Of a stretch of DNA of 64,000 bases, positions 46,867-64,000 are shown piece by piece. The stretch is from Clostridia bacterium (GTDB taxonomy: Bacteria > Bacillota > Clostridia > Christensenellales > Aristaeellaceae). The notes beneath the pieces were generated by a model. That model saw only the letters and a program-made list of their open reading frames with translations, had not been told where the DNA came from and did not search any database. Position numbers and translations under genes: made by a program. Position 1 is the stretch's first letter. Each line of letters starts with the position of its first letter. The DNA is taken from positions 7,274 through 71,273 of the forward strand of contig JAFWZN010000049.1 in NCBI GenBank assembly GCA_017522345.1, read 5' to 3'.

Positions 46867-47462
46867 GCAAAGGAAAAAAACGATCAGGCAAACGCATCTT
46901 TCTTCCGCTTGCGCTGCTCTTTGTTCTCGCAATCCTCTTTGTGTGCGTGCTTCCCGATGCGCTTGAAAGGGTAAATTATCCTGTCCGATACGCGGAATGG
47001 ATCGAAGAATTTGCCGAGGATTACGGGCTTGATCCCGCGCTTGTGGCGGCGATTGTTTATACGGAATCGGGCTATGACGTAAATGCGACAAGCGCTGTCG
47101 GCGCGAGGGGGCTTATGCAGGTGATGCCTTCCACCGCCGAGTGGATTCACCCAAAGCTTAAAAAGCCCTATCCGTTTGACGCCGACGTTCTCTATACTGT
47201 GGACGGCGCGCTTACATATGGCTGCTGGTATCTTGATTTTCTTTCGGATCTGTTTGACGGTGATCCGTTAAGCGTGATTGCCGCCTATCACGCGGGACAG
47301 GGGAAGGTGCAGTCGTGGCGGAAGGATACTGCCTGCGCGCCCGACGGCGTTCACTTAACGAATATTCCCGAAGGGGCAAAGGCTACGCGGCATTATGTTG
47401 AGAAGGTTAATAAGGCTTATGAATATTACACAAAAATTTATCACGCGGATGCATTCCAGTAA
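46863..47462 (+). CDS. lytic transglycosylase (SLT domain), membrane anchored
   Basis: N-terminal TM, ESGYD..ATSAVGARGLMQVMP and AYHAG motifs. ATGA overlap with coaE. Confidence 0.88.
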   Translation: MSKGKKRSGKRIFLPLALLFVLAILFVCVLPDALERVNYPVRYAEWIEEFAEDYGLDPALVAAIVYTESGYDVNATSAVGARGLMQVMPSTAEWIHPKLKKPYPFDADVLYTVDGALTYGCWYLDFLSDLFDGDPLSVIAAYHAGQGKVQSWRKDTACAPDGVHLTNIPEGAKATRHYVEKVNKAYEYYTKIYHADAFQ

Positions 47463-48984
47463 AAAACGTCTTTTCTGCCTGCTTTTGTGCGCGCTTGTGC
47501 TGTTTACCGGAACGGCTGCCGCAGGCAATGAAGACGTTTTTACCATTGGCATGGTTTGCTCCGCAGGCGCTACGATCAACCCGTACCGCTGCACGCAGAG
47601 GGATTTGATCAGCTTTAACGAGCTTGTGTTTGAATCGGTGCTCGATTTCGACGAGGCGTTCAAGCCCGTAGGAGAGCTTGCGCTTTCCTGGCAGATGGAG
47701 ACGGGCGGCGTGTATACGTTCAAACTGCGCGACAATGTGCGCTTTCACGACGGATCGTTTCTTTCCGCAAACGACGTCGTGGCGGCATATGATTATATTA
47801 TCTCTCTTGGCGACGCGAGCCCTTATTATACCCGCTGCCAGTATATTAAGAAAATGGAGGCTGTTGACCTTTACACCGTAAAGGTTACAGGTAAATACGA
47901 AAGCTATCTGACGCTTTACGCCATGACATTCCCGGTTGCCCATCGCAATACGGTTTCGCAGGAGCTGGCGTGCGGGACGGGGCCGTATTGGTATATCGGA
48001 TACGATCTTGAGTGGCTGCAGCTGGATATCAACCCCTATTGGTGGAAAAAAACGCCCACGATTTCGACGCTGTTCGGTCTCCGCTACGACGATACAGGAA
48101 AAGCGCTGGTTGCGCTCAGCATGGGGGAGATCGACGCGCTCTCGACGCGCTCTCAAAACGCCGCGCTTTCAAGGCTTTTAAACGACCGAACCGGCGTTGA
48201 CTACACCACGCTCACTTATGAGCTTCTGATTCCGAATCTCAACAGCACGATTTTTGGAAACGTATACACCCGCCAGGCGCTCATGTACGCCATCGACATC
48301 ACAACGATCGCTTCCAACATCTACATGGGCATGGTAACGGAGTCGGAGGTGCCCGTCGTTCCCGGAACATGGCTGTACGAAACGCAATCCGCCGTGTATT
48401 TTGAATCGCAGGAGCGTGCGCTTCAGCTTTTGTATCAGGGCGGCTGGGGCGATTTTAATAACGACGGCATTCTGGATCAGGTTGTAGGCGGCGTTCTTCA
48501 GCAGTTTGAATTTACGATTCTCACTTACGATGACGATACTGCCGGCACGCGCACGCACGCGGCCGAGATGATCCGCGATCAGCTGAAGCCGCTGGGCATC
48601 AATGTGACGGTTTCTACTTCCACCAAATCCGCCGTTCAGAAAAAAATGAAGAACGATGAGTTCGACATGGTGCTTTGCGCCATGAACATGGCGATGCTGC
48701 CCGACCTGACATTCCTTCTGAATTCGCAGGGCAGACTTAATTATTCCGGTTATATGGACGGCGGTATGAACACGCTGCTTGAAGACGTTTACATGACGAC
48801 GGACGAGGCGCAGTTTCAGTTTCTCATGAGCCAGATTCAGATGAAAATCGTAGGCGAGCTTCCGTTTCTGGGCCTTTTCTTCAGAAAAGGCACGATTATG
48901 ACCACGGCCGACATCTCGGGTCTTGCGGCGGTCAGGGAAAACGATGCGTTTAGGGGAATCGAGTACGTTGCGTTCCATGAGTAA
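47449..48984 (+). CDS. family-5 (peptide/nickel type) ABC substrate-binding protein, orphan
   Basis: Signal-like MHSSKKRLFCLLLCALVLFTGTAAAG and an SBP_bac_5-like body (LRDNVRFHDGS...). The start is uncertain; in-frame alternatives lie at 47395 and 47419. Confidence 0.75.
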   Translation: MHSSKKRLFCLLLCALVLFTGTAAAGNEDVFTIGMVCSAGATINPYRCTQRDLISFNELVFESVLDFDEAFKPVGELALSWQMETGGVYTFKLRDNVRFHDGSFLSANDVVAAYDYIISLGDASPYYTRCQYIKKMEAVDLYTVKVTGKYESYLTLYAMTFPVAHRNTVSQELACGTGPYWYIGYDLEWLQLDINPYWWKKTPTISTLFGLRYDDTGKALVALSMGEIDALSTRSQNAALSRLLNDRTGVDYTTLTYELLIPNLNSTIFGNVYTRQALMYAIDITTIASNIYMGMVTESEVPVVPGTWLYETQSAVYFESQERALQLLYQGGWGDFNNDGILDQVVGGVLQQFEFTILTYDDDTAGTRTHAAEMIRDQLKPLGINVTVSTSTKSAVQKKMKNDEFDMVLCAMNMAMLPDLTFLLNSQGRLNYSGYMDGGMNTLLEDVYMTTDEAQFQFLMSQIQMKIVGELPFLGLFFRKGTIMTTADISGLAAVRENDAFRGIEYVAFHE

Positions 48985-49688: not shown

Positions 49689-51170
49689 TTATTTGTTCAG
49701 ATACCAGCCGTAGTCGTAGCCGTTGTCATGGACTTCCTTTAAGGGGGAGAGGGCAAAATGGACGACCGCGTTTGCGCGAAGAAGGATGCAGGCCTCGTTT
49801 TCGACGATTTCGGTTTCGATCTTCGGGTTCGCCGCCTGCTTAAGATACATGGTCTGCGCTTTGGTGAGGGTTGCGGGCTCGCCCATGTCGTGCCAGATCT
49901 TTAGGGGATTGGTCGTTTCCTCATCTACGGTGCGGGTCATGAGCGTTTTTGCGCCTGCTTCGGGAAGGGAAAGGCGGATTTCCTTTTCTTCTCTCGAAAT
50001 GTTCCATAAAACGCCCTCGTATTTTCCCTCTTCTGTTTTCATGACGACGATGTTTTCGTCCTTATAAACGCAGTCGCCCTTCAGATTATTGAAGAAATGG
50101 AACGTCCACATGGTGGGCTTGGGAATAAGGCCGCCGGCAATCAGGCCGAAGCCGCCGTGGAAGGGGCGGGAGGGAACGCCCATTTCCTCGAACACGTCGC
50201 CGAAGGTCCAATAGGAATAGCTTCTGGCGACGTCGCCCAAGCACGCGAGCAGGCCTGCGATGTTGGCTGCGTTATAGTTGGTGTCGTGAATGGGGCAGAA
50301 GGGATTGTAGGAAGTGTTGAATTCGGTGATGTGCATATCCATTCCCTTAAACTCGGGGAAGCTGTCGATGATTTCGCGCGTGGTCTTCATTTCCTCATAG
50401 GTATAGGAAACTTCGCACATATCGTGATAGAGATATCTGCCTTTCCTTTCGGGGGTCTGTCCCATATAGGCGTGGCGGGTCACGAAATCAACGGGCACAT
50501 GGTTGTCGCGGCAGAAGGTCAGAAAATCCTTAACCCATTCCTGCGAGCCGCTTCCGCCGCAGATGGCCGGGCCGCCGACCTTCATTTTGGGAAGAACTTC
50601 CTTTACCGCCCGGGCGGACACTTCATAAAGGTGCAGATACTTTTCTTTATCTGCGTTTTCCCAGAAGCCGGGAAGGTTGGGCTCGTTCCATACCTCGCAC
50701 GGCCAGGTGGACACAAATTCCTTCCCGTAGCGGTCGGCAAGATGGATAAGGGTGGCTTTTATGAGATTGGCCCACTTTTCATGATCTGCCGGGGGCGTGG
50801 TGTTTCCCTTCCAATAGAAGAGGGTCTGTGTGCCGGAAGCCATTTTAGAGGGCATGAAGCCCAGCTCCAGAAACGGCGTCAGGCCGTTTTCAAGGTAGGA
50901 ATCCATCACGCGGTCGAGATAGGTGAAGCAGTAGGCGTCCACGAGATTTCCGTTTTCATCCGGATAGGGCTGATAGATCGCCATATCGTCGGAGAAAAGG
51001 CCGTGTCCTCTTATGTGCTTAAAGGATGCCAGCGACTGCGCCAGGCGCATTTCGTCCACATATTCCTTTTGAAGCGCAAGCCCCATGCGCCCTGTTCCAA
51101 TTAAAAAGTCTGCGTTGTTTATGAATTTGGCATGCATATCCCTGCTTATGGAAACGGTTTTTACGTTCAT
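49689..51170 (-). CDS. glycoside hydrolase family 39 (beta-xylosidase-like)
   Basis: CEVWNEPNL (acid/base NEP) and MHITEFNTSY (nucleophile Glu context). ATG at 51170 after GGGAGGAG. Confidence 0.85.
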   Translation of the reverse strand: MNVKTVSISRDMHAKFINNADFLIGTGRMGLALQKEYVDEMRLAQSLASFKHIRGHGLFSDDMAIYQPYPDENGNLVDAYCFTYLDRVMDSYLENGLTPFLELGFMPSKMASGTQTLFYWKGNTTPPADHEKWANLIKATLIHLADRYGKEFVSTWPCEVWNEPNLPGFWENADKEKYLHLYEVSARAVKEVLPKMKVGGPAICGGSGSQEWVKDFLTFCRDNHVPVDFVTRHAYMGQTPERKGRYLYHDMCEVSYTYEEMKTTREIIDSFPEFKGMDMHITEFNTSYNPFCPIHDTNYNAANIAGLLACLGDVARSYSYWTFGDVFEEMGVPSRPFHGGFGLIAGGLIPKPTMWTFHFFNNLKGDCVYKDENIVVMKTEEGKYEGVLWNISREEKEIRLSLPEAGAKTLMTRTVDEETTNPLKIWHDMGEPATLTKAQTMYLKQAANPKIETEIVENEACILLRANAVVHFALSPLKEVHDNGYDYGWYLNK

Positions 51171-51332
51171 GATGGTCTCCTCCCTGATGATTGCTCTATG
51201 CACAGATTGCTTGTTTTTACAAACGTTTATAGGATTACTTCGACGAAAAATGAAAACCTCCTTCTATTCAAGGTGCCTAAAGAAAAAAACAAAATAAAAA
51301 GCTTTTGATCACTAAAACGTTTTCTGAAAAGA

Positions 51333-51361
51333 TTGACAAGTTGCACGAAATGTATTAGAAT
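51333..51361 (+). promoter_or_regulatory. sigma-70-type promoter of the carbohydrate locus
   Basis: TTGACA, a 17 nt spacer, then TAGAAT, about 95 nt upstream of the first gene. Confidence 0.6.
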
Positions 51362-51456
51362 ATGTAAAAACATGTATACGAAAAAGATGTAGAGTCATTT
51401 TCAGGAAGGCCTGAGAGCATCAGAAACAGAAGTTGATCTAAGGGGCGTTGGCTATC

Positions 51457-54357
51457 ATGAGAAAATTTCGTAGTGTACTGATTGGACTTGTATGCGTGGC
51501 GGCCGTAATTGCGCTTGTTGTATTTTTAGACGCAGAGCCCGAAAACTTCCGCGCAAAATACGAGGGAACAGACCTTTCGCAAGACGTATCCGGCATAGGC
51601 AGAAGCGATACCTATGGCGGGTATTTGCGCGCCCATCAGAATGCGCCCAAGGCGGAAGAGGGCGCGAAAGTGGATGTTCTTTCCTTTGAAGGCAACGCCG
51701 AAATTCTGTCGGATGAGGATGGAAGCGAGTATGTATACACCTCCGATTCGTCCTACGTTACGTGGAAAGTCAATGTTGCTCAAAGCGGCATGTACAACAT
51801 CAGAATTGATTACATGGCCGGCGAAAGCCGAGGCGTCGACGTGGAGCGCGAGCTGTATATCAACGGCGAGCTTCCCTTTGCAGGCGCAGGTCAGCTGACC
51901 TTCAACCGTCTGTGGACGGACGCGGGCGAGGTTACGCAGGACAATCAGGGCAACGACATTCGTCCCTCCCAGAAGGAAGTTTTCGCTTGGCAGAAGGCGT
52001 TTTTGAAGGACGATATGGGCTATCAGATCGAGCCCTATCAGTTCTACCTTGAAAAAGGCGAAAACACCATTTCCTTAAAATCCGTAAACGAGCCTATGAA
52101 AATCCGCGCGATGGAGCTTCTGCCGGTTGCAGGGCAGATTACATATGAAGAATATCTGAGCGCGCAGCCTGAAGCCTCTATGTCCGAAGAAGCCAAGAAA
52201 TTCTCCGTGACCATTCAGGGCGAGGACGCGTATCTTCGTTCTTCTCCGTCCCTGTATGCACGATATGACCGCTCCTCCGCCGACACCAAGCCCTACAGCG
52301 TGAAAAACACCGTTCTGAACTACATCGGCGGCGACCCGTGGAGAACGGCCGGCCAGTGGATCGAATGGGAGTTTGAAGTGCCTGAGGATGGCTATTATGC
52401 CATTTCCGTCAAAGCCCGTCAGGCTTATCAGCGCGGTTCGGTTTCCGCCAGAAGCCTCTACATCGACGGAGAGATTCCGTTTGAAGAAGCAAGCATCATT
52501 TCCTTCGACTACGACACCTCTTGGGAACTGTACACCCTGTCCGACGAAAACGGAACGCCGTATAAATTCTATCTTGAAAAGGGCGCGCACACCATCCGTC
52601 TCGAAGCTACCCTCGGCGAGATGGGCACGATTTTAAGCCAGATTGAAGAAAGCATTTACAGGCTGAACCTGATTTACAGAAAAATTCTCGTTTTAACCGG
52701 CGTCAACCCCGACCGCTTCCGCGATTACAACCTCGCAAAGGTTTATCCGGACGTTCTGGAGGCGATGGATCTTGAAAGCAAGCGCCTTTACAAGCTTGTT
52801 GACGACTCGGTTGCAATCACCGGTCAGAAGAGCGACCGCGTAGCCGTTGCGCAGACGCTGGCCAATCAGCTTGAGAAATTCTGCTTGTACAACGAAAGAA
52901 TTACCAAGCAGTTCACAAACTTCAAGGACAATATCACTTCCTTGGGCACCGCGATGCAGAACATGTCCGAGTGCAAGCTGGACATCGATCTTCTGATTGT
53001 AAGCGGCGAAGATGCCAAGCTTCCCAAGGTACGCGACGGTTTTGTTGCAAAAGCCATCCACGAGATCCGCTCCTGCGTGATGAGCTTTTTTGTCGATTAT
53101 AACTCTCTGGGCAACAAGTACGAGGAGGGCGAGGAGGAGGATCTGATCGAGGTATGGATCGTCACCGGCCGCGACCAGTCCACCGTGCTCAAAACCATGA
53201 TCGACGACAACTTTACGCGTGATTACCATGTCAAGGTCAATGTAAAGCTCGTCGTTGCCGATACGCTTCTGACCGCTGTTGTCGCCGGAAACGGCCCGGA
53301 CGTCGTTTTGTCTCTGGGCAGCTGGTTCCCGGTCAACTACGCGATGCGAAACGCGGTTGAGGATCTGACGCAGTTTGAAGATTTTGACGAGATCATTAAG
53401 CCGTTCTATGAGAGCGCGATTCTCCCTGCCGAATACAACGGCGGCATTTACGCACTTCCCGAAACGCAGGAATTCTCCGTTCTCTTCTATAGAAAGGACG
53501 TTCTGGAGGAGCTTCAAGTGACCGCGCCCGACACGTGGGACGAGCTGATTGCGCTTCTTCCCACCATTCAGGGCAACAACATGTCCGTAGGCATTTCCTA
53601 TCCCGACATCGCGACGGTCGACCTTTCCATTCTGAACTCGCTGATTTACCAAAACGGCGGTCAAATTTACGACGAAGACGGAAAGAAGACCTTGATTGAC
53701 GAAGAGAGCGGCGTTACTGCCTTTAAGCTTTACACCTCCCTTTACAACGACTACGGCCTCCCGACCGTATTCGACTTTGTCAGCCGCTTCCGTTCAGGCG
53801 AAATGCCCATCGGCATCGCAAACTATTCCGTATACAATACGCTGGTTGTATCCGCGCCCGAAATCAGAAATCTTTGGGACTTCACGCTCTTCCCCGGCAC
53901 GATCAGAACCGATGAAAACGGCGAGGCGTACATCGACAGAAGCGTTCATTCGCAGGGCCTTAGCTGCATGATGATCGCAACCGACGATGAAAAGGTGAAA
54001 CAGAACGCGTGGAAATTCATGAAGTGGTGGGTGAACGCCGATACGCAGGCCCGCTTCGGCCGCGAGATCGAGTCCATTCTGGGCTCCTCCGCCCGCTACA
54101 CTACCGCCAACCGCGACGCGCTCAAGCAGCTTGCATGGTCGAAAGATGAGCTCAAGGTTCTTGAAGAGCAGATGGCTTCGACCGTCGGCTTCCGCGAAAT
54201 TGCCGGCGGCTATTCCACCACCCGTCACATGACCAATGCGATCCGCCGCGTTATCAATACAAAAGAAGACGCGCGCGAGACGCTGATCACCTATGCGCGA
54301 ACGATCAACGAAGAGATCCGTATCAAGCGCAAAGAGTTCGGCCTGCCGCTGGAATAA
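51457..54357 (+). CDS. 966 aa membrane-anchored protein: two CBM-like beta-sandwich repeats plus a family-1 sugar ABC substrate-binding domain
   Basis: N-terminal TM VLIGLVCVAAVIALVVFL. Internal repeat (W.V.V..SG.Y.I...; R.LYI.GE.PF; Y.FYLEKG..TI.L) seen twice. The C-terminal ~430 aa resemble an extracellular solute-binding protein. Confidence 0.75.
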   Translation: MRKFRSVLIGLVCVAAVIALVVFLDAEPENFRAKYEGTDLSQDVSGIGRSDTYGGYLRAHQNAPKAEEGAKVDVLSFEGNAEILSDEDGSEYVYTSDSSYVTWKVNVAQSGMYNIRIDYMAGESRGVDVERELYINGELPFAGAGQLTFNRLWTDAGEVTQDNQGNDIRPSQKEVFAWQKAFLKDDMGYQIEPYQFYLEKGENTISLKSVNEPMKIRAMELLPVAGQITYEEYLSAQPEASMSEEAKKFSVTIQGEDAYLRSSPSLYARYDRSSADTKPYSVKNTVLNYIGGDPWRTAGQWIEWEFEVPEDGYYAISVKARQAYQRGSVSARSLYIDGEIPFEEASIISFDYDTSWELYTLSDENGTPYKFYLEKGAHTIRLEATLGEMGTILSQIEESIYRLNLIYRKILVLTGVNPDRFRDYNLAKVYPDVLEAMDLESKRLYKLVDDSVAITGQKSDRVAVAQTLANQLEKFCLYNERITKQFTNFKDNITSLGTAMQNMSECKLDIDLLIVSGEDAKLPKVRDGFVAKAIHEIRSCVMSFFVDYNSLGNKYEEGEEEDLIEVWIVTGRDQSTVLKTMIDDNFTRDYHVKVNVKLVVADTLLTAVVAGNGPDVVLSLGSWFPVNYAMRNAVEDLTQFEDFDEIIKPFYESAILPAEYNGGIYALPETQEFSVLFYRKDVLEELQVTAPDTWDELIALLPTIQGNNMSVGISYPDIATVDLSILNSLIYQNGGQIYDEDGKKTLIDEESGVTAFKLYTSLYNDYGLPTVFDFVSRFRSGEMPIGIANYSVYNTLVVSAPEIRNLWDFTLFPGTIRTDENGEAYIDRSVHSQGLSCMMIATDDEKVKQNAWKFMKWWVNADTQARFGREIESILGSSARYTTANRDALKQLAWSKDELKVLEEQMASTVGFREIAGGYSTTRHMTNAIRRVINTKEDARETLITYARTINEEIRIKRKEFGLPLE

Positions 54358-54379: not shown

Positions 54380-55318
54380 TTGAAATCATTTCTGAAAACC
54401 TATGTAGAGATGAAGCGCGAGACCATTAAGTATAATTTCGCCAAGGCCAAGCGCATGAAAATTTGCTACCTGTTCCTTCTGCCCTATGCTGTTTTGTTCA
54501 CGACCTTCTTCATTCTTCCCATCTGCACATCGATTTACTATTCTTTCACGCAGTATAACATCCTTGAAAAGCCTCAGTTTGTCGGCTTTCAGAACTACAT
54601 TAACTTAGTGCTTCAGGATGAAGTGTTCCTGACCTCCGTCAAGAATACGCTGGTGATTGCGGTAATCACAGGTCCCATCGGCTACATTCTGTCGTTCCTG
54701 TTTGCATGGTTCATCAACGAGCTTCCCAAGTGGATTCGCGCCATTGCGGTCGTTGTGTTCTACGCTCCGTCCATCGCAGGAAATGTGTACTTCATCTTCT
54801 CTATCATCTTCCGCGGCGATATTTACGGATATCTGAACTCATTTCTGGTTGATTTCGGTCTGATCAACGCGCCGATTCTGTGGCTGACCGATCCCAACTA
54901 CATGCTTACCGTTATCATCATTGTTATCCTGTGGATGAGCATGGGCACAGGCTTCTTATCCTTCGTTGCCGGTCTTCAGGGCGTTGACCGCGCGATGTAC
55001 GAGGCCGGTTATGTTGACGGCATCAAAAACCGCTGGCAGGAGCTTTGGTACATCACCCTCCCGTCCATGAAGCCCATGCTTCTGTTCGGCGCGGTTATGA
55101 GTATCACCTCCGCTTTCAACGTCTGCGACGTGCCCAGAGCTTTGGCAGGCTATCCGTCTACGGACTATGCCGCCAGAACCATCGTCACGCACCTGTTCGA
55201 CTACGGTTTCTCCCGCTTTGAAATGGGTTATGCGTCGGCCATTGCCACAGTATTGTTCTTAGTCATGATTTTGTGCAACAAGGCCATTCAGTCTATGCTT
55301 AGGAAGGTGGGCTCTTAA
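54380..55318 (+). CDS. sugar ABC transporter permease (MalF/CUT1 type)
   Basis: Six TM segments and an EAA-like loop YEAGYVDGIKNRWQELWYITLP. TTG start after GGGAGATGAGG. Confidence 0.88.
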   Translation: MKSFLKTYVEMKRETIKYNFAKAKRMKICYLFLLPYAVLFTTFFILPICTSIYYSFTQYNILEKPQFVGFQNYINLVLQDEVFLTSVKNTLVIAVITGPIGYILSFLFAWFINELPKWIRAIAVVVFYAPSIAGNVYFIFSIIFRGDIYGYLNSFLVDFGLINAPILWLTDPNYMLTVIIIVILWMSMGTGFLSFVAGLQGVDRAMYEAGYVDGIKNRWQELWYITLPSMKPMLLFGAVMSITSAFNVCDVPRALAGYPSTDYAARTIVTHLFDYGFSRFEMGYASAIATVLFLVMILCNKAIQSMLRKVGS

Positions 55319-56688
55319 TGGAAAATAAGAATATTCCCGTAAAGCCCGCCAAGAAAACGCGCGGCGATATTCTGCATGAGCGCATGGTGCTTCTGGGTGA
55401 GATTAAGGAAGAAAAGAAGTTTGACAAAAAGAAGTTTTTCTTAACCTCTCTTATTATACTTTGCGTTATGATTGCGGCGATTGTCGTTCTTCAGTACAGG
55501 CTGAATACGATTGCGGCCTATGAAGACGCGCTTTATGCCCAGCAGGCAGCTGCTGAGATTGTCGCGGATGAAAACGCCGCCACGGTTTCAGAGGCAACAG
55601 TTGCTGAAGCGGCCGCCGCAGTCGAAGCAGCCACCGAGATGGAAGCGGCCGCCGCGGTCGAAGCGGCCACTGAGGTGGAAGCGACCACCGAGGCAGAAGC
55701 GACCACCGAGACAGAAGCGGTCGGTGAGATCAAGAAACCGCAGGATTATACCTTTGCGCCGTTCTATCGCGCGGGCAAGCTTCTTCTGATCGTTGGCGCA
55801 TGTGCGTATGGCTTCTATGTCGTCATCCGCCTGCTTGCACCCAAGCGCAGAAAGCCCAACCGCAGCGTATGGGGCGACTTTGGAATTTACTTCATGCTGC
55901 TTTGCGTAGCGATTCTCATGATTTTCCCGCTGGTATTCTCCGTCAGCGCGTCGCTCAAGCCCTTGGACGAATTGTTCCGCTTCCCGCCGACGGTGTTCCC
56001 GCGCCAGCCCACTATGGATAACTTCTCCGACCTCTTCGTCACCTTGAGCCAGAGCTTCGTGCCCTTCTCGAGGTATCTGGTCAACACGGTATTTCTCACC
56101 TTCATCGGAACCATGGGTCATGTGCTCATCGCTTCCATGGCGGCGTTCGTGCTTGCGAAGTATGATTTCCCTGGCGGAAAGACGTTTTTCTCCATTGTCG
56201 TTACCGCGCTCATGTTCTCGGGCTACGTAACCGGCATTCCGAACTATGTCATTATGTCGAAGCTTCGCATGATCGACACCTACTGGGCGATCATTCTTCC
56301 CGCGTTTGCCGCGCCGATCGGCCTTTTCCTCATGAAGCAGTTCATGGAAGGCCTGCCGACCTCGCTTATTGAAGCTGCGCACCTTGACGGCGCGGGCGAG
56401 ATGAGAATTTTCTGGTCGATCGTAATGCCCAACGTAAAACCCGCATGGCTCACCATCATCATTTTCTCCGTGCAGAGCCTGTGGAACACCAATGCCTCCA
56501 CGGTTATCTACTCCGAAGCCAAGAAAACGCTGGTCTATGCGCTTCAGCAGATTCAGGCCGGCGGTATCGCCCGTACGGGTCAGGCTGCTGCGGTAACGGT
56601 AATCGTAATGCTGGTTCCGATTACGATCTTTATCCTTTCCCAGAGCCGCATCCTTGAAACGATGGCAAGCTCTGGTCTTAAGGATTAA
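55318..56688 (+). CDS. sugar ABC transporter permease (MalG/CUT1 type) with ~165 aa N-terminal extension
   Basis: EAA loop IEAAHLDGAGEMRIFWSIVMP. An extra N-terminal TM plus an Ala/Glu/Thr-rich tandem repeat. TAATG overlap with the previous gene. Confidence 0.88.
   Translation: MENKNIPVKPAKKTRGDILHERMVLLGEIKEEKKFDKKKFFLTSLIILCVMIAAIVVLQYRLNTIAAYEDALYAQQAAAEIVADENAATVSEATVAEAAAAVEAATEMEAAAAVEAATEVEATTEAEATTETEAVGEIKKPQDYTFAPFYRAGKLLLIVGACAYGFYVVIRLLAPKRRKPNRSVWGDFGIYFMLLCVAILMIFPLVFSVSASLKPLDELFRFPPTVFPRQPTMDNFSDLFVTLSQSFVPFSRYLVNTVFLTFIGTMGHVLIASMAAFVLAKYDFPGGKTFFSIVVTALMFSGYVTGIPNYVIMSKLRMIDTYWAIILPAFAAPIGLFLMKQFMEGLPTSLIEAAHLDGAGEMRIFWSIVMPNVKPAWLTIIIFSVQSLWNTNASTVIYSEAKKTLVYALQQIQAGGIARTGQAAAVTVIVMLVPITIFILSQSRILETMASSGLKD
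55606..55731 (+). repeat. in-frame tandem repeat (2 x 36 nt, then 3 x 18 nt) inside the permease gene
   Basis: gaagcggccgccgc(a/g)gtcgaagc(a/g)gccac(c/t)gag(a/g)tg twice, then gaagcgaccaccgag(g/a)ca twice and gaagcggtcggtgagatc. It encodes EAAAAVEAATEM/V and EATTEA/T. Confidence 0.9.
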
Positions 56689-56728: not shown

Positions 56729-58237
56729 GTGAAATCATTTACAAGGGTAATGACCATGATCCTTGCAATCGTTACGCTTGTTTCTTCAATCCAGGCGTTT
56801 GCAAGCGAGGACGGTAATTTTACCAATTATACCTATAACTACGATTACTGGCAGGATGAAATCGAAATGCCCGACGCGTACCGCGTGGAGCAGGTCGTCT
56901 ATTCCGGTACGCTGGGTCTTGAAACGCCCATGAACAAGCCGCAGAGCCTGTATATCCGGGGCAATCGCGTCTATGTTGCCGATACCGGCAATAACCGGGT
57001 GCTTGAGATCGAGCGTCAGGGCAATCAGTTTAAGCTTTTACAGATCATCGACAAGATCAAGGGCGCTCAGCCTGAAACCCTTTCTTCGCCCAGCGATATG
57101 TTCGTTGACGAAGCGGGCAACATTTACATCGCAGACACCAATAACCAGCGCATCATCAAGGCTGACAAGGACTTGAATTTCGTCATGAGCTTTGTCAAAC
57201 CCACAGATCCCACCTTTGGCGAAGGCGATTTCCTGCCTGCGCGCATGGTTGTCGACGTGTCCGGCCGCGTGTATGCGCTTGCCACCAACATCAATAAGGG
57301 CTTGATCAAGTATGAGGCCGACGGCATTTTTGCCGGATTCATTGGCGCAAACCCCGTAACGTACACGATGTTTGAATACATCTGGAAAACATTTTTCACC
57401 TCCAAGGCGCAAAGAGCCCAGCAGGCCGCCTTTGTACCGACTGAGTATTCCAACATCGCCATTGATGAGGAAGGCTTCATCTATGCGACCAACGCCGTGT
57501 TCTCCGAATACGACCTCCTTTGGGACAACGCCAAGCCCATCCGCCGTTTGAACAGCATCGGAAACGATATTCTGGTCAAAAACGGCTGGCTGCCCCCGAT
57601 CGGCGACATCTATTGGGAGGAGCAATCCATCGAACACGGCCCCAGCAAGTTCAAAGACATCACCGTTCTTGAAAACGACATCTATGTCGCCTTTGACCGC
57701 ACCCGCGGCCGCCTGTTCGGCTATGACAGTCAGGGCATTCTTTTGTGGGCATTCGGAAACAAGGGCAACACCGAAGGCACGTTTAACGGCGCAGTTTCCA
57801 TTGAGCATATGGGAAACGATTTGTATTGTCTGGATGAACTTGGCTGTACGATTACTGTTTTCAGACCTACGGATTACGGCAATCTGATCTTTGAGGCTTC
57901 CGACCAGTATCTGAAGGGCGACTACGATGCGTCCGCTGATACCTGGAGAGAGGTATTAAAGCTTAACGCCAACTACAATCTCGCTTTCATCGGAATCGGA
58001 CGCGCGCTGATGCGACAGGAAAATTTCGAAGAAGCCATGAAGTACTTCAGGATGGCGTATGATCAGGAGAACTATGGCAGAGCCTATCGCTACTTCCGCA
58101 AGGAACGAATCGAAGAGAACATCGGATGGATCGTTGCGATTGCAGTTGTTCTGATTGCAGTGATTCTGATTCTGAGGGTAATACGGAAAATGAAGTGGGA
58201 GGTGCAGGAATATGAGAGCAAGCGGAAAGCCCGCTAA
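56729..58237 (+). CDS. NHL-repeat six-bladed beta-propeller protein with TPR-like segment and C-terminal TM anchor
   Basis: Signal peptide, then about six NHL-like blades (VYVADTGNNRVLEI, IYIADTNNQRIIKAD, ...). A TPR-like YLKGDYDASADTWREVLKLNANY..., then TM WIVAIAVVLIAVILIL. GTG at 56729 after GGGGGG; the start is uncertain. Confidence 0.75.
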   Translation: MKSFTRVMTMILAIVTLVSSIQAFASEDGNFTNYTYNYDYWQDEIEMPDAYRVEQVVYSGTLGLETPMNKPQSLYIRGNRVYVADTGNNRVLEIERQGNQFKLLQIIDKIKGAQPETLSSPSDMFVDEAGNIYIADTNNQRIIKADKDLNFVMSFVKPTDPTFGEGDFLPARMVVDVSGRVYALATNINKGLIKYEADGIFAGFIGANPVTYTMFEYIWKTFFTSKAQRAQQAAFVPTEYSNIAIDEEGFIYATNAVFSEYDLLWDNAKPIRRLNSIGNDILVKNGWLPPIGDIYWEEQSIEHGPSKFKDITVLENDIYVAFDRTRGRLFGYDSQGILLWAFGNKGNTEGTFNGAVSIEHMGNDLYCLDELGCTITVFRPTDYGNLIFEASDQYLKGDYDASADTWREVLKLNANYNLAFIGIGRALMRQENFEEAMKYFRMAYDQENYGRAYRYFRKERIEENIGWIVAIAVVLIAVILILRVIRKMKWEVQEYESKRKAR

Positions 58238-58880
58238 GGGTGAAACGCGCTTTCAGCGATACATCGCATCCGTAAAGTACGCAAAGCACGTCATATTCCA
58301 TCCCTTCGACGGTTTCTGGGATCTGGTACATGAAAAGAGAGGATCCATCGGCGCCGCGCATACGTTTCTTGCGCTTTTCCTTCTTGCCTATGTTCTGAGG
58401 CTCATGTACACGAACTTTCAGTTCATGACCGCGCCTCTTCAGTACATCAATATCTATGAACAGTGCGCCTCTCTCCTTCTCCCGTTTTTGATTATCTGTA
58501 TTTCAAACTGGGCGCTTTCCACGCTTTTTGACGGAAAAGGCTATTTCAAGGATATCTACATGGCGCTGTGCTATGCGCTGGTGCCGTATTTTCTGATTCA
58601 GCTGCCGCTGGTTGCCATCAGCCACTTTATCTCTTTTGACGAAGTTGCTTATTACAACGTGCTTGCCGGCATTTCCGTTATCTGGCCCGTGTTCCTTGTG
58701 TTCGTAGCGCTTATGCAGGTGCATGATTACACCCCCGGAAAAGCGTTTATTTTCCTGTTCGTCACGATTTTCGGCGCGCTTGTAATTTTGTTCCTCATTT
58801 TGGTATTTTTCAGCCTTTTAAGTGATGCGGCGGCATACTTTGTATCGCTGTATCGTGAGATTGTCTTCAGACTTCACTAA
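58212..58880 (+). CDS. Yip1-like polytopic membrane protein
   Basis: Five TM segments after HPFDGFWDL..., reminiscent of bacterial YIP1 family proteins. RBS GGAGGTG. Overlaps the previous gene by 26 nt. Confidence 0.65.
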   Translation: MRASGKPAKGETRFQRYIASVKYAKHVIFHPFDGFWDLVHEKRGSIGAAHTFLALFLLAYVLRLMYTNFQFMTAPLQYINIYEQCASLLLPFLIICISNWALSTLFDGKGYFKDIYMALCYALVPYFLIQLPLVAISHFISFDEVAYYNVLAGISVIWPVFLVFVALMQVHDYTPGKAFIFLFVTIFGALVILFLILVFFSLLSDAAAYFVSLYREIVFRLH

Positions 58881-58895
58881 GGAGGTGGTTAAGCG

Positions 58896-61484
58896 ATGAA
58901 AAAGCAAAAGTCGATTCTCGTTCGTTTGCTTCCGTGGCTGGTTGTTCTGGCCGCGCTGGCTGCGCTCGTGATTTTTGTCGGAATTCCGCTGTACGCGCCT
59001 CAGGAGACTGAAGAGCTTGCGCCGCCGCAGGTTTTCTTCTACGAGGGCGATATGGATAAAGCGTCCCTCAAGATGGAAAACGACGATCTCCTTTTCGAGA
59101 TGGATCCTGATAATACCCATTTTAAGCTCACCGAAAAGGCGACCGGCCGCGTATGGCTTTCCAACCCCGCGGATGCGGATAAGGATAAGAAAGCGGTTTC
59201 CACAAACAAGGGCATTCTGAATTCTACGCTTCTTCTTTACTATTCTCCTTTGGGAAGCACCGATATAGAGAGAAACAACTATCAGTATTCCATCGAAAAC
59301 CAGAACTTTATCTATGAGATCACCGAAGACGGTGCAATTCGCGTAACCTACGCCATCGGTCAGATCGAAAAGGTATACATGATTCCCTACGCCATCACAA
59401 CTGAGCGGTATAAGTTCTATACCGACCAGATGAGTGGTAAGGACAAGAAAAAGATTTCCGGTTACTATTCCAAGCAGACGCCCGCGTCTCTTGAAAAACT
59501 TTCGGCGGAAGAGAAAGAGCAGATGCTTCGATTGTATCCGTCGCTTGCAGAGCAGGAACTTTACATCATGAAGTCCAACATTACTGCCAGCAACAAGGAA
59601 AACGCCGAAGCGGTGTTTGCCTCGCTTGGTTACAATGAGGAAGAGTATGCGATTGATCAGGCGCTGATTGCGGCCAAGAAGGAATCCGACAGCCCCATCT
59701 TCAACGTTTCGGTCGAGTACCGACTGGACGGCGGAGATCTCGTTGTCAGCGTTCCCATGCAGGATATGCGTTACCGCGCGGACTATCCGATTACGTATCT
59801 GACGGTTCTTCCCATGTTCGGCGCACAGGGCGTTGATCAGGAAGGTTTCATACTGGTTCCTGAGGGCGGGGGCGCGCTCATCAATTACAACAACGGAAAG
59901 CTCAAGCAGAACAGCTATTTTACCAATCTTTATGGCTGGGATTATGCTCAGAAGCGCGATGAGGTTGTCAATGAAACGCAGGCGCTGTTCCCCGTGTACG
60001 GCATGACCGGAAACGGCGGCTCCTTTATCTGCATAGTCGAAGGCGCGCAGGCTTATGCTGGCATTCAGGCGGATATTTCCATGCGCTATAATTCGTACAA
60101 CTACGCAAACGTCAAATACACCGTTATCCACAGCGAGGAGTATAACGTATCGGCAAAGACTGCTCAGATCGTAAAAATGTTTGAAAAGCAGATGCCCGAG
60201 GACGTTATTCAGCAAAGATATTGCTTTGTTGAATCCGACAGCTATGTGGACATGGCAAAAACGTACGGCGAATACCTTGTAAACAAGCATCCCGAGCTTA
60301 AAGACATGAATGAAAACGCTGATATGCCCGTAAACGTTGAGCTCATCGGCGCCATCAGCAAGACCGTCGTCAAGTTCGGCATGCCCGTTGATTCCGCTGT
60401 TCCCGCAACGACCTTTCAAGACGCGCAGGACATCATTTCGGATCTTACCGACGCCGGCTTAAAAAATCTCTCCGTTCGCTTCTCCGGCTGGAACAATGGC
60501 GGCGTGAACCAGAAGGTTTTGAATAACATCAAGGTTGTCAAAAAGCTCGGCGGGGAAGAGGGCATGGAGAAGCTGATTGAGGCTGCCAAAGAAAGGAAAA
60601 TTCCGCTTTACTTTGACGGCGTCACCTGCTTTGCCTACGACAGCGGCATTTTCAAGGGCTTCAATCCCTTTAATGATTCCGCGCGGCATGCAACCCGCGA
60701 GCAGGTTAAAATTGATGATTATTCCTTCGTCACATACCGCAGCGTCAGCTGGAAGGATCCCTTCCAGTTGGTAAGTCCTTCCTACGCAAGCGAGATGGCG
60801 GAAAATCTGATCGACAAACTGGACGATATGGATGCTCAGGGCGTCGCTTTCCGCGATATCGGAAGCCTGCTTTCGGCCGATTACAACCCGAAGGCGCTCG
60901 TTACCCGCGAGCAGGTCAAGCAGATGAACATCGAGACTATGCTGGACGCAAAAGAACATGGCCAGAAGATTCAGATCAAAGAAGGCTTCGACTTCGCGAT
61001 TCCCTATGCGGATTTGATTACCGATATGGATATGATCGGAAGCCAGTATGCCCTGATTGACGAATCGGTTCCGTTCTATCAGATTGCGCTGCATGGACGA
61101 GTTGAATACACGGGTCTGCCCATTAATGTTGCCGCTGATTGGGAGACCGAGCTTCTGAACTGCGTTCAGTATGGCGCGGGTCTCAACTTCACCTTCATGG
61201 CGGAGGATGCGAAAATCGTTCAGGAAACCTACCATTCCAGCCTCTACGGCGCGTCTTATGACGAGTGGGCGGAGGATGTAAAGAAGATCGTGAACGATTA
61301 TCAGACGGCGATGGCGGGTCTTAACCAGACCGCGATCACGGGTCACGAAATTTTGGGCGATGTAACGGTAACAACGTATGAAGACGGCAGAAGCGTATAT
61401 GTCAACTACGGCTTTGCGGATTATGCTGTGGGCGATGAGACCGTTCCCGCCAGAAGCTACATCGTAGTAGGGGGTGACAAGTAA
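58896..61484 (+). CDS. 862 aa N-terminally anchored extracytoplasmic protein, DUF5696-like (family assignment from memory, unverified)
   Basis: TM LLPWLVVLAALAALVIFV followed by a large non-repetitive domain. RBS GGAGGTGG. The stop overlaps the next permease start. Confidence 0.6.
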   Translation: MKKQKSILVRLLPWLVVLAALAALVIFVGIPLYAPQETEELAPPQVFFYEGDMDKASLKMENDDLLFEMDPDNTHFKLTEKATGRVWLSNPADADKDKKAVSTNKGILNSTLLLYYSPLGSTDIERNNYQYSIENQNFIYEITEDGAIRVTYAIGQIEKVYMIPYAITTERYKFYTDQMSGKDKKKISGYYSKQTPASLEKLSAEEKEQMLRLYPSLAEQELYIMKSNITASNKENAEAVFASLGYNEEEYAIDQALIAAKKESDSPIFNVSVEYRLDGGDLVVSVPMQDMRYRADYPITYLTVLPMFGAQGVDQEGFILVPEGGGALINYNNGKLKQNSYFTNLYGWDYAQKRDEVVNETQALFPVYGMTGNGGSFICIVEGAQAYAGIQADISMRYNSYNYANVKYTVIHSEEYNVSAKTAQIVKMFEKQMPEDVIQQRYCFVESDSYVDMAKTYGEYLVNKHPELKDMNENADMPVNVELIGAISKTVVKFGMPVDSAVPATTFQDAQDIISDLTDAGLKNLSVRFSGWNNGGVNQKVLNNIKVVKKLGGEEGMEKLIEAAKERKIPLYFDGVTCFAYDSGIFKGFNPFNDSARHATREQVKIDDYSFVTYRSVSWKDPFQLVSPSYASEMAENLIDKLDDMDAQGVAFRDIGSLLSADYNPKALVTREQVKQMNIETMLDAKEHGQKIQIKEGFDFAIPYADLITDMDMIGSQYALIDESVPFYQIALHGRVEYTGLPINVAADWETELLNCVQYGAGLNFTFMAEDAKIVQETYHSSLYGASYDEWAEDVKKIVNDYQTAMAGLNQTAITGHEILGDVTVTTYEDGRSVYVNYGFADYAVGDETVPARSYIVVGGDK

Positions 61485-62515
61485 TGGCACAGGCGAAGAG
61501 CAAGGTCGGCGTAAGAAAGTGGGGCCTCAAGGATTCCATTCTGACCTATCTGCCGATTGAACCCCTGATCAGACTTATTAAAGGATCCAAGAAGAAAAAC
61601 GGCACGTTCGATTCCATGAGATCCAGAAATGCCAGAATCGGAACGCTGTTTGTGCTTCCTTTTATCCTCGGTTTCCTCGTGTTCATGTTAAGGCCCCTGT
61701 GCGAATCTCTCCTAATGAGCCTTTCTGCGGTTAAGATCATTCAAGGCGCCGGATATACGAGTACACTCAACGGCTTTGAAAATTACAAATACGCGCTTAC
61801 GGTTGACCCTGATTTCAACAATTTTCTGGTTGATGAAATCGGTCGTATGGCAATCAACGCCATTTCTACCCTCGTTCTGAGCTTTGTTATCGCTGTAATT
61901 CTCAATCAGAATTTCAAAGGCAGAACCGCCGCACGCGCCATCTTCTTCCTGCCGGTTATTCTCGCTTCCGGCGTATTGCCCGGCATTGAAGCGCAGGTTG
62001 GTTCCAACCAGGAAATTACGATGATCGAATCCGTTGCGGAAGAACTTTCTTCCTCTTCGGGCATCAATATCTCCGCAACGCTTGAAGAACTGCTTTCCGT
62101 ATCCGGCATGGCGTCCAGCGTATTTGACATTTTGTTCACAATGATCGACTCCATTTACGACATCGTCATGGCCAGCGGTATCCAGATTATTGTGTTCCTG
62201 TCCGGTCTTCAGGCCATTTCGCCTTCTCTTTATGAGGCAGCGGATATGGAGGGCTGCACGGCGTGGGAATCCTTCTGGAAGATCACGTTCCCCATGGTCA
62301 GTCCGCTTCTTCTTGTTAACTGCATCTATACCATCATCGACTTCTTCATGAAGAACGATAACAAGGTTATGGAGCGCATTAACACGGTTATGTATTCGCA
62401 ACTTCGATTCGGCGAAAGCGCGGCGATGAGCTGGATTTATTTCGCGATTGCTCTTGCATTCATTGCGGTGAGCTCCTTTATCATCACCAGGGGGGTACAC
62501 TACTATGAAGACTAA
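61484..62515 (+). CDS. sugar ABC transporter permease (MalF/CUT1 type), second set
   Basis: Six TM segments and an EAA loop YEAADMEGCTAWESFWKITFP. Confidence 0.88.
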   Translation: MAQAKSKVGVRKWGLKDSILTYLPIEPLIRLIKGSKKKNGTFDSMRSRNARIGTLFVLPFILGFLVFMLRPLCESLLMSLSAVKIIQGAGYTSTLNGFENYKYALTVDPDFNNFLVDEIGRMAINAISTLVLSFVIAVILNQNFKGRTAARAIFFLPVILASGVLPGIEAQVGSNQEITMIESVAEELSSSSGINISATLEELLSVSGMASSVFDILFTMIDSIYDIVMASGIQIIVFLSGLQAISPSLYEAADMEGCTAWESFWKITFPMVSPLLLVNCIYTIIDFFMKNDNKVMERINTVMYSQLRFGESAAMSWIYFAIALAFIAVSSFIITRGVHYYED

Positions 62516-63512
62516 TAAAACGGAAATGATCCGAAAACGCGATTTCTGGGAGGCGAACCGACAGTCCGGCGGCTATCTTTTAAGAAACAAAATCTCCAAA
62601 ATGATAGTTTCCGTGGTTCGCGCGCTTCTGTTGTTCGGTCTGTGCTTCATGATCATTCAGCCCCTTTTGACTCGATTTTCCACCTCCCTGATGCCGGAAA
62701 AAGATCTTTATGATTCTACCGTCATACTTGTACCCCGCGAGATCACGTTTGATAACTACAGGATCGTTGCCGATCTTACCGGACTTCCCAAGTCCATGCT
62801 GAATACGCTTTGGACGTGTACGCTGGTTTCGGTTCTGCAGGTTATCGCGTGTACGTTGGTTGGCTATGGCTTTGCCAGATACGATTTTCCGCTTAAAAAG
62901 CTTTGGTTCGGCTGCGTAATCGTCACAATCATTGTGCCGCCGCAGACCATCGCTACAGCTTTGTACATGAACTTCGTAGACTTTGACGTGCTGGGCATCA
63001 TTAAGCTGTTTACGGGCAAGGGCGTGAAACTGCACGGTTCCATTGTTCCGTACTCCCTGATGAGCATCACCTGCATGGGCCTAAAAAACGGTCTGTACAT
63101 CTATATGCTCCGCCAGTACTTCAGAGGAATTCCGAAGTCCTTAGAAGAAGCTGCATACGTGGACGGATGCGGAAGCCTCCATACCTTCGTTCGCATCATG
63201 CTTCCCGATGCCATGCCCACGATTCTGAGCTGCTTCCTCTTCTCCTTCGTATGGCAGTGGACGGATCTTTTCTACACCAGAAACTTCCTGTCCAACTACA
63301 CGATTTTCTCCAACGAGCTTTCTACCATCTTGACCCGCATGAGTCTCTACTTTTCCAATGAGACCGGAAAGCCCACCATCGTTCCTGTCGGACGTCAGAT
63401 GCAGCTGGTTTCCATCGGAATTCTTGTCTGCTCTCTCCCGCTGATCATTCTCTACATTTTCACCCAGCGCACCTTTGTAGAGTCGATCGCGATGTCCGGT
63501 ACGAAGGAATAA
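62505..63512 (+). CDS. sugar ABC transporter permease (MalG/CUT1 type), second set
   Basis: EAA loop LEEAAYVDGCGSLHTFVRIMLP. 11 nt overlap with the previous gene. Confidence 0.88.
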   Translation: MKTNKTEMIRKRDFWEANRQSGGYLLRNKISKMIVSVVRALLLFGLCFMIIQPLLTRFSTSLMPEKDLYDSTVILVPREITFDNYRIVADLTGLPKSMLNTLWTCTLVSVLQVIACTLVGYGFARYDFPLKKLWFGCVIVTIIVPPQTIATALYMNFVDFDVLGIIKLFTGKGVKLHGSIVPYSLMSITCMGLKNGLYIYMLRQYFRGIPKSLEEAAYVDGCGSLHTFVRIMLPDAMPTILSCFLFSFVWQWTDLFYTRNFLSNYTIFSNELSTILTRMSLYFSNETGKPTIVPVGRQMQLVSIGILVCSLPLIILYIFTQRTFVESIAMSGTKE

Positions 63513-63773
63513 AGGTGCAGATTTATTCGTTGCCAAAAAACTTCCTTTACACAAGGGAGGCGCGGGACGGGAAACCCGTCCCCTACGGGTTTGATCGGGT
63601 TGCAGCGAGGGAATGAGGCGTAAAGCACATTCCAAGCGGATTCGATTGGATCATGCTGTAGGGGAGGCGTTCCGCCGCCCGGATCTCCGTCCGAAACGAT
63701 TCGGACACTCATTTCGAATCTATGTGCGTTACGAAAAAACGCACACAGAAATATTTTTAGGAGGAACCCCATT

Positions 63774-64000
63774 ATGAAGAAACTGGTCGCAATGCTCCTT
63801 TCCCTCATGATGCTGCTCGTGTGCGTTGGCGCATGCGCAGAAGCTCCCGAAGGATATCCGGAAGTTACCCCCGGTATCGATTTCGGCGGCGCACAGATCT
63901 ACGTCTACGACTATTGGACCGCAAGCGCTGATCGCGTAGCCGAGCCCACCGACGAACAGCAGGCTCAGTATGACTACCGTGACTGGCTCGAGGCCACCTA
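63774..64000 (+). CDS. lipoprotein, probable second sugar-binding protein (3' end outside window)
   Basis: ATG at 63774 after AGGAGG. Signal peptide plus lipobox MKKLVAMLLSLMMLLVCVGAC. The reading frame is open to the window edge. The SBP call rests on position only. Confidence 0.55.
   Translation, partial: MKKLVAMLLSLMMLLVCVGACAEAPEGYPEVTPGIDFGGAQIYVYDYWTASADRVAEPTDEQQAQYDYRDWLEAT

Follow-up and report, generated by a model that had tools for sequence, protein, structure and literature searches.

A conserved nine-gene cassette places an anchored DUF5696 protein with a predicted GH129-like fold between two sugar importers

ATP-binding cassette (ABC) importers of the CUT1 type in Firmicutes, such as MalEFG/MsmEFGK and AbnEFJ, usually come without an ATPase of their own, one ATPase being shared. 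The Sus-like loci, or 'utilisomes', of Bacteroidetes combine a fixed core for transport and surface binding with a surface enzyme and with variable glycoside hydrolases (GHs) and regulators. ZgGH129/DagB of Zobellia galactanivorans (PDB 5OPQ, 8RZG-8RZK), an exo-alpha-1,3-(3,6-anhydro)-D-galactosidase with candidate catalytic residues Asp486, Glu517, Glu531 and Asp202 (PMC5698469), is a retaining enzyme according to Wallace et al. 2024, as cited in PMC11574756. For a Yip1-family protein we found a single bacterial precedent, YknW, the fourth component of YknWXYZ, an ABC transporter of Bacillus (PMC4887032). Here we describe a nine-gene cassette in a 64,000-nucleotide (nt) stretch of DNA from the metagenome-assembled genome of a Clostridia bacterium (Christensenellales; contig JAFWZN010000049.1; the whole stretch is hereafter referred to as the window). 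Its parts are of known kinds: CUT1 importers, a predicted GH129-like fold, an NHL protein and a Yip1 protein. The nine-gene architecture, the dual importer with a solute-binding protein (SBP) fused to carbohydrate-binding module (CBM)-like domains, the NHL/TPR–Yip1 unit and the surface-tethered, GH129-related family are undescribed. The logic is that of the Sus-like loci; the cassette core, however, lacks SusC/SusD homology and belongs to the cytoplasmic membrane of Gram-positive bacteria, with ABC rather than TonB energisation.

The nine genes are co-directional on the + strand and encode, in order, SBP-A, permeases A1 and A2, an NHL/TPR protein, a Yip1 protein, the DUF5696 protein, permeases B1 and B2, and SBP-B (Table 1). 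They form an operon-like unit with the NHL/TPR, Yip1 and DUF5696 genes (hereafter the trio) at its centre and an SBP gene at each end. An earlier note, made from the sequence alone, had described the trio as three genes between two permease pairs; the placement holds, and the extent grows to nine genes. Its three family assignments all lie above the Pfam cut-offs: NHL at 44.2 bits (cut-off 20), Yip1 (PF04893) at 54.5 bits (cut-off 28.6; E 1.7e-14) and DUF5696 (PF18952) at 622.7 bits (cut-off 25.6; E 9.4e-187).

Conservation of the order was assessed at two depths. A species-level scan, in which each species was represented by one genome, turned up DUF5696 relatives at 493 places, of which the best 80 were analysed; in these loci, mostly from ruminant-gut Christensenellales, the DUF5696 protein is 49-92% identical to that of the window. 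Cassette gene content was scored by tblastn with all cassette proteins in the 54 loci with room for nine genes and in the 26 that were truncated. The nine genes stand in the same order in 50 of the 54 complete loci; in the remaining four the first eight are ordered and only the second SBP is not detectable. None of the 26 truncated loci departs from the cassette order. More distant members (24-45% identical where measured), taken from representatives clustered at 50% identity and from annotated plasmids, gave ten contexts: a Cohnella-like one (L085), six metagenomic contigs (L087, L088, L089, L093, L094 and L095), L092, the Butyrivibrio fibrisolvens D1 plasmid pNP243 (L090) and a Paenibacillus cellulosilyticus plasmid (L091). 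All ten show a large SBP, two permeases, NHL, Yip1, DUF5696 and two further permeases, and the smaller SBP usually comes next, lying in some upstream or further off. The cassette order is thus strictly conserved across Clostridia and Bacilli, and throughout the best 80 loci and the ten distant contexts the trio always travels with both permease pairs, as the earlier note had proposed to check. RefSeq names the trio of B. fibrisolvens D1 'NHL repeat-containing protein', 'YIP1 family protein' and 'DUF5696 domain-containing protein'; the literature searched contained neither a mention nor a functional study of DUF5696, PF18952 or the trio gene combination.

We favour, as somewhat probable on the strength of sequence comparison and structural models, a surface glycan-processing and dual-import system in which DUF5696 would be the enzyme and NHL/TPR–Yip1 a scaffold or binding unit. 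We infer from the comparisons below the catalysis by DUF5696, a physical complex, a division of labour between the importers and the substrate, as follows. The CBM-bearing SBP-A would capture an oligo- or polysaccharide, probably plant-derived, and DUF5696, on the outer face of the membrane, would trim or split the captured oligosaccharide. Importers A and B would take up two kinds of product, A by way of the giant anchored SBP-A and B by way of the ordinary lipoprotein SBP-B, both powered by an MsmK/UgpC-type ATPase encoded elsewhere. The NHL/TPR and Yip1 proteins would make up one membrane unit, with propeller and TPR outside and a six-helix base, that binds glycan or holds the enzyme and the transporters together. 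An extracytoplasmic accessory module working with the flanking transporters, in capture, depolymerisation or gating, had been proposed in the earlier note, and synteny, gene fusions, fold and topology now support it. Since the predicted fold is that of the GH129/DagB/GH101 class, depolymerisation stands out among the three options as the most concrete.

The DUF5696 protein of the window, IKJ65_05385, matches PF18952 with its residues 248-855, which span the full profile (positions 1-612 of 612), and the family comprises 5,601 clusters at 50% identity (E 0.001 or better). Hydropathy gives it a single N-terminal transmembrane helix. At the N terminus, each of 52 diverse members has a lipobox, a signal peptide or a transmembrane anchor, and the family is thus extracytoplasmic and surface-tethered. 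A single-sequence phmmer search of the PDB returned marginal matches (E ~1e-3), which were accepted only once profile searches, Foldseek and profile-profile alignment agreed. A profile of 41 close homologues matched ZgGH129/DagB (5OPQ, 8RZG-K) at E ~1e-8 and the GH129 enzyme NagBb at E 1.5e-3; a profile of the 52 diverse members strengthened both matches, to E 9e-12 and E 4e-7, respectively. Alignment of DUF5696 with a DagB-family alignment by hhalign gave a probability of 99% (E 8.9e-18) over 443 aligned columns, which run from the last part of the N-domain through the entire barrel and the C-domain. DagB-like proteins (P0418-P0428) themselves pass the Pfam cut-offs of both DUF5696 (33-67 bits) and Glyco_hydro_129, PF11308 (25-45 bits), and match DUF6259 weakly; the dual matches show that PF18952 and PF11308 overlap and are evidently related.

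The AlphaFold2 model of DUF5696 (predicted local distance difference test (pLDDT) score 76.7; predicted TM-score (pTM) 0.78) consists of an N-terminal beta-sandwich, a (beta/alpha)8 barrel at residues ~479-770 and a C-terminal beta domain, that is, a predicted three-domain fold like that of GH129/DagB. Foldseek matched the model to ZgGH129 (5opq; E 3.5e-30, TM-score 0.65 on the target) and to NagBb (5wzn; E 6e-26, TM-score 0.68 on the target), followed by GH101 (E ~1e-17), GH36, GH97, GH13 and GH31, all enzymes that act on alpha-glycosidic bonds. The fold comparison that had been suggested for the 862-aa protein thus places it in the GH129/DagB/GH101 alpha-glycosidase class. ZgGH129/DagB, the best match by both profile and fold, shares with DUF5696 the three-domain plan, an N-terminal ...TGxVWxSxP... 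motif and aligned barrel strands beta1-beta3. The window protein is, however, ~13-14% identical to it, exceeds it by ~200 residues and has a helical insertion at ~169-255; moreover, DagB is periplasmic, encoded in a Bacteroidetes polysaccharide utilization locus with SusC/D and at home in marine carrageenan degradation, whereas DUF5696 is membrane-anchored, encoded in the ABC cassettes of Gram-positive bacteria and found in gut and soil. The same fold class holds the alpha-N-acetylgalactosaminidase NagBb of GH129 (5WZN) and the endo-alpha-GalNAc-ases EngBF and SpGH101 of GH101, all of them retaining alpha-glycosidases whose Asp nucleophile follows beta4; from these DUF5696 differs in being at most 11% identical, in having no identified counterpart of the acid/base Glu and in a context that is not mucin-related.

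Membership of GH129 was considered and rejected for the window protein, which gives no PF11308 match at E 0.01 or better and does not conserve the acid/base residues of GH129/DagB. The earlier note had held that its proposal would fall if the 862-aa protein hit a characterised CAZy family; what emerged is half of that, a distant relationship to ZgGH129/DagB with neither a PF11308 match nor the acid/base residues. Profiles and model together make DUF5696 a diverged homologue of the GH129/DagB group, rather than a member, as well as a candidate retaining alpha-glycosidase and a candidate new alpha-glycosidase (CAZy) family. Long extra regions that have no Pfam match occur in the 2,431-aa DUF5696 giant of L092 (L092:10001-17296), whose cassette is unchanged, and in the 1,622-aa P0121.

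Candidate catalytic residues were sought by counting conservation in the 41 close homologues and in the 52 diverse representatives. They are D654, D662 and D722, with D699 and D710 as further candidates. The ZgGH129 barrel sequence used for the single-fragment and profile-profile alignments was reconstructed from HMMER alignments. Profile-profile alignment places DagB Asp486, the equivalent of NagBb Asp435, on D654, two residues past the predicted strand beta4 and invariant in 41 of 41 close homologues. The alignments disagree at this point: single-sequence HMMER, and hhalign with one ZgGH129 fragment, move Asp486 three residues on, to S657, and delete strand beta4. We judge the S657 placement implausible and tentatively prefer D654. 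The NagBb match, which covers barrel strands beta1-beta3 only, stops short of Glu478, the acid/base residue of NagBb after beta5. Close to the acid/base positions, conservation of E696, D699 and D710 is confined to the close subfamily; D699 and D710 were first taken from the close-homologue alignment as the acid/base, an assignment that was dropped when the diverse alignment showed them to be subfamily-specific. The acids kept family-wide in the barrel are D662 (49 of 52) and D722 (48 of 52), and those in the N-domain are D97, D254, D349 and E382. D662 and D722 stand 60 residues apart, a spacing that may be akin to that of the beta4/beta6 pairs in GH36 and GH31. If DUF5696 is active, catalysis probably proceeds by a rearranged apparatus.

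Several observations weigh against the surface-processing reading. D654 is Asp in only 24 of the 52 diverse members, and the classical GH129 mechanism is thus not conserved family-wide; the acid/base positions are not conserved either, ZgGH129 Glu517 falling on K695 and Glu531 on T709. The model is of moderate confidence only, and its pLDDT is lowest in the barrel, below 50, in loops 659-667 and 715-720, at D662 and adjoining D722. These loops may be mobile and serve in catalysis or substrate gating. An MsmK/UgpC-type ATPase gene is absent from the window, where the only match, at 29%, lies inside an unrelated open reading frame (ORF). The diversity of the flanking GHs argues against one fixed substrate, and with such flanks DUF5696 could have a generic, non-hydrolytic role. 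The physical complex of the trio with the transporters is one that we infer from synteny and fusion only.

Much of this would suit a DUF5696 that is a catalytically dead descendant of a glycosidase, serving as a glycan-binding, gating or structural subunit of the dual importer, which might hold long oligosaccharides for the SBPs, while the lineage-specific secreted GHs encoded nearby do all the cleavage. The missing acid/base equivalents and the patchy Asp at D654 are what such a descent would leave, very different GH sets beside one cassette are what a substrate-agnostic platform would show, and the most conserved motifs of the family lie in the N-terminal beta-sandwich rather than in the barrel. 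Against it, D662, D722 and the barrel aromatics W532, Y/F663, Y700 and F727 are kept across 24-45% identity, which is the pattern of an active site, and D654, D699 and D710 are each present in at least 40 of the 41 members of the window subfamily. DagB, too, departs from the catalytic pair of NagBb and is yet active and retaining (PMC5698469; Wallace et al. 2024, cited in PMC11574756). A dead DUF5696 seems to us unlikely, though it is an explanation to be taken seriously.

The NHL/TPR protein contains a six-bladed NHL propeller that resembles those of the binding type. Against the PDB it matches Pizza6/PknD at E 4e-24 to 4e-13, with six repeats in the alignment. The TPR-like stretch, reported from the sequence earlier, matches PDB consensus TPR proteins (E 1.9e-10) and falls under the Pfam thresholds (TPR_16, 28.7 bits against 32.7; TPR_2, 22.9 bits against 27). 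Hydropathy agrees with the topologies first proposed for the trio: a signal peptide and one C-terminal transmembrane helix in NHL/TPR; five hydrophobic segments in Yip1; and the N-terminal anchor in DUF5696. NHL/TPR also has a short basic tail. The bulk of the NHL/TPR and DUF5696 proteins accordingly lies outside the membrane. In the AlphaFold2 model of NHL/TPR (pLDDT 74.7), residues 51-380 form the propeller and residues 382-443 helical hairpins, and the transmembrane segment is part of a long helix; in Foldseek the model reaches TM-scores of 0.72-0.77 on target six-bladed NHL domains. TRIM-NHL and Pizza (PknD-derived) domains rank first; BT1954, a surface lipoprotein of Bacteroides thetaiotaomicron that captures cobalamin, and the PknD sensor domain come further down, and enzymes such as virginiamycin B lyase rank lower. 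Because binding-type NHL domains outrank enzymes, the modelled propeller looks like a binding platform; BT1954 brings a surface propeller capture protein of Bacteroidetes among its structural neighbours. NCBIfam offered only sub-threshold ScyF/NHL similarity for the trio.

The Yip1 match covers residues 25-195 and profile positions 1-172 of 173. NHL/TPR and Yip1 are one protein of 683-724 aa in L088, L091, L093 and L094, four of the ten distant contexts; propeller, TPR-like region and transmembrane helix there run straight into the Yip1 domain. This gene fusion indicates that the two proteins work as one unit. It would also suit a regulator, in which the propeller senses extracellular glycan and the Yip1 domain switches the importers or DUF5696 on or off: propeller and Yip1, as the fused form shows, act together as a single protein, among bacterial structures the propeller is closest to the extracellular sensor domain of PknD, and YknW accompanies the YknXYZ ABC transporter as its Yip1-family component (PMC4887032). 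We consider a regulator distinctly improbable, however, as the tail of ~15 residues leaves no cytoplasmic output domain and the regulators seen beside cassettes are separate AraC, LacI or two-component proteins. The parallel with YknWXYZ, a polytopic Yip1 protein encoded with an ABC transporter in Firmicutes (PMC4887032), also has its limits: YknXYZ is a different machine, a MacB-type exporter with a membrane-fusion protein, and has no propeller, glycosidase-like protein or SBPs, whereas the cassette has importer permeases and SBPs only.

Two permeases with BPD_transp_1 domains and a sugar SBP, the signature of a CUT1 importer, occur twice in the cassette, as A1/A2 with SBP-A and as B1/B2 with SBP-B. 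SBP-A (a 969-aa ORF; 953 aa according to gene callers) has an N-terminal transmembrane helix at residues 9-27 and a C-terminal SBP domain (SBP_bac_8, E 4.8e-24; SBP_bac_1, E 8.9e-24). Ahead of this domain lie two weak CBM35/6-like repeats, with weak CBM_35 and Golvesin_C matches and a PDB match to CtCBM35 (2w47) at E 0.025, and we take SBP-A to be an unusual predicted CBM–SBP fusion. A counterpart of 929-1114 aa is the first gene of every cassette seen. SBP-B leaves the window; in the full contig it is a lipoprotein of 451 aa (L001:14879-16234) with the lipobox LVCVGAC. It has no Pfam match, and its PDB match to the arabino-oligosaccharide-binding AbnE (6rjy, E 1.3e-7) marks it as a divergent sugar SBP; its counterparts in distant cassettes do carry SBP_bac_1/8 matches. 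Some cassettes have the small SBP as two tandem copies 3' of permease B2 (L043:14836-17804 and L090:15492-18922).

Among the permeases, A1 (BPD_transp_1, E 2.2e-13; six hydrophobic segments) resembles UgpA and GlcT of NCBIfam under their cut-offs, and A2 (E 7.1e-13, residues 272-447) resembles UgpE (E 6e-29, under the cut-off). The N-terminal extension of A2, ~190 aa, comprises two added transmembrane helices and an Ala/Glu/Thr-rich loop that is encoded by an 18/36-nt tandem repeat at 55606-55720. A2 is 456 aa long in the window; contigs that are otherwise identical encode 450 aa. Among the distant cassettes, five have permeases of 282-300 aa that lack the extension, and the protein is long in L092 (591 aa) and L095 (404 aa). 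B1, with seven hydrophobic segments, matches BPD_transp_1 over residues 227-288 only (E 3.8e-7), and B2 matches it at E 9.5e-15, with similarity to MalG (NCBIfam, E 1.4e-16) under the cut-off. Like MalEFG/MsmEFGK and AbnEFJ (AbnE, 6RJY), the cassette thus has MalF/MalG-like pairs and cluster-type SBPs, its ATPase is encoded elsewhere and GH genes adjoin it; the P. cellulosilyticus cassette (L091) has a ugpC ATPase gene directly upstream. Unlike those importers, it has two permease pairs and two SBPs in a fixed array, a CBM-like SBP of ~950 aa and three non-transporter membrane proteins between the permease pairs.

The genes that flank the cassette vary with lineage. In Christensenellales, GH10 genes occur at 21 of ~70 loci and GH5 genes at 20 of ~70, and GH26 with CBM35, GH39 and AraC regulators are also seen. 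Elsewhere the flanks hold GH113 with DUF5060, GH31 with GH95, GH38, two GH78, GH43 with a two-component system, and LacI. The flanking GHs are secreted or accessory, and xylulokinase is also among the neighbours. With flanks this variable the cassette behaves as a reusable core with variable hydrolases. A 'xylan system' was considered as a firm assignment and set aside, as the flanking genes give no single substrate. The fold class of DUF5696 suggests as substrate an alpha-linked, possibly galacto-configured residue, and the gene neighbourhood suggests hemicellulose side chains. Median identity to the window proteins in Christensenellales is lowest for DUF5696 (54%) and SBP-B (58%), the fastest-evolving, and highest for the A permeases (~80%), the slowest; this is the pattern expected if DUF5696 and SBP-B both contact the substrate as specificity determinants.

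These data bear on a further possibility, namely that the target of the cassette is the envelope or exopolysaccharide of the cell itself, to be remodelled, recycled or exported. Tethering of all three central proteins to the membrane at the surface, and a cassette that is generic across lineages, are compatible with such a role; type I importer permeases with dedicated SBPs, however, define uptake, genes for plant-polysaccharide hydrolases, xylulokinase and AraC/LacI sugar regulators stand next to cassettes, and the large SBP carries CBM-like domains, so that we regard an envelope function as very improbable. That the trio consists of unrelated passengers between two independent sugar transporters has practically no probability left, being refuted by the same gene order in the best 80 loci and ten distant contexts, with coding regions that overlap.

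The surface-processing and dual-import reading can be taken further, to a single Gram-positive 'utilisome' of all nine proteins on the cytoplasmic membrane, in which NHL/TPR–Yip1 would bridge the two importers and a founding member of a new alpha-glycosidase family, and a glycan captured by SBP-A would undergo one cleavage, its two products being channelled straight into the two importers; we think this extended form unlikely as it stands. If it were true, Firmicutes would re-use one modular core for many glycans, as Bacteroidetes do with SusC/D. DUF5696 is a surface-tethered relative of the GH129/DagB alpha-glycosidases and stands in one fixed nine-gene architecture in every case sampled; the two findings together make it a concrete candidate for a new CAZy family. 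They also define the cassette as a core that recurs in the glycan-utilisation loci of Gram-positive bacteria, among them rumen and gut Christensenellales, Butyrivibrio, Paenibacillus and their relatives. Recognising it would improve the annotation of fibre-degrading capacity in metagenomes. Two cultured carriers, B. fibrisolvens D1 and P. cellulosilyticus KACC 14175, make the idea of surface cleavage, dual ABC uptake and a scaffold testable.

Table 1 Features of the cassette in the window and NHL/TPR–Yip1 fusions in distant contexts
Feature	Coordinates	Strand	Basis or remark
Sigma-70-like promoter candidate, TTGACA-17-TAGAAT	51333..51361	+	11/12 consensus matches, consensus match only; before first cassette gene
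SBP-A	51448..54357	+	Giant membrane-anchored solute-binding protein, SBP_bac_1/8 domain
Permease A1, MalF/UgpA-like, CUT1 type	54380..55318	+	BPD_transp_1
Permease A2, MalG/UgpE-like, N-terminal extension	55318..56688	+	BPD_transp_1
NHL/TPR protein	56729..58237	+	Pfam NHL, PDB TPR, hydropathy, AlphaFold model
Yip1-domain membrane protein	58212..58880	+	Pfam Yip1, hydropathy
DUF5696 protein, 862 aa	58896..61484	+	Pfam DUF5696, profile and fold matches
Permease B1, divergent MalF-like	61484..62515	+	BPD_transp_1
Permease B2, MalG-like	62505..63512	+	BPD_transp_1
SBP-B, first 75 codons; gene leaves window	63774..64000	+	Translation, ribosome-binding site
NHL/TPR–Yip1 fusions	L088:7837-9993, L091:8584-10743, L093:7934-9985, L094:4841-6931		L091 is P. 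cellulosilyticus KACC 14175, cultured

Coordinates and junctions given for the trio before were confirmed by an ORF listing and by direct reading of the junctions. The NHL/TPR gene begins with GTG at 56729, eight bases past a GGGGGG ribosome-binding site, and overlaps the Yip1 gene by 26 nt (58212-58237). A gap of 15 nt, which contains AGGAGG, separates Yip1 from DUF5696 at 58896, and the DUF5696 stop overlaps the permease B1 start in TAATG at 61482-61486. These overlaps and the tight spacing suggest coupled translation, and inside the array there is no terminator-like site with a convincing T tract.

Upstream, between coaE/polA and a GH39 gene, lies an SBP_bac_5 gene (47395-48984; E 1e-54), beside which no permease genes were seen among ORFs of at least 200 aa. 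The GH39 gene (49689-51203, - strand) is divergent from the cassette, and the promoter candidate falls within the intergenic region that they share; GH39 is a neighbour in only the four nearest related loci. At the other end, a 261-nt spacer (63513-63773) between permease B2 and SBP-B contains a GC-rich hairpin, GGGACGGGAAACCCGTCCC, at ~63564-63583, without a T tract. The hairpin may serve in internal processing or attenuation, or the spacer could precede a separate SBP promoter.

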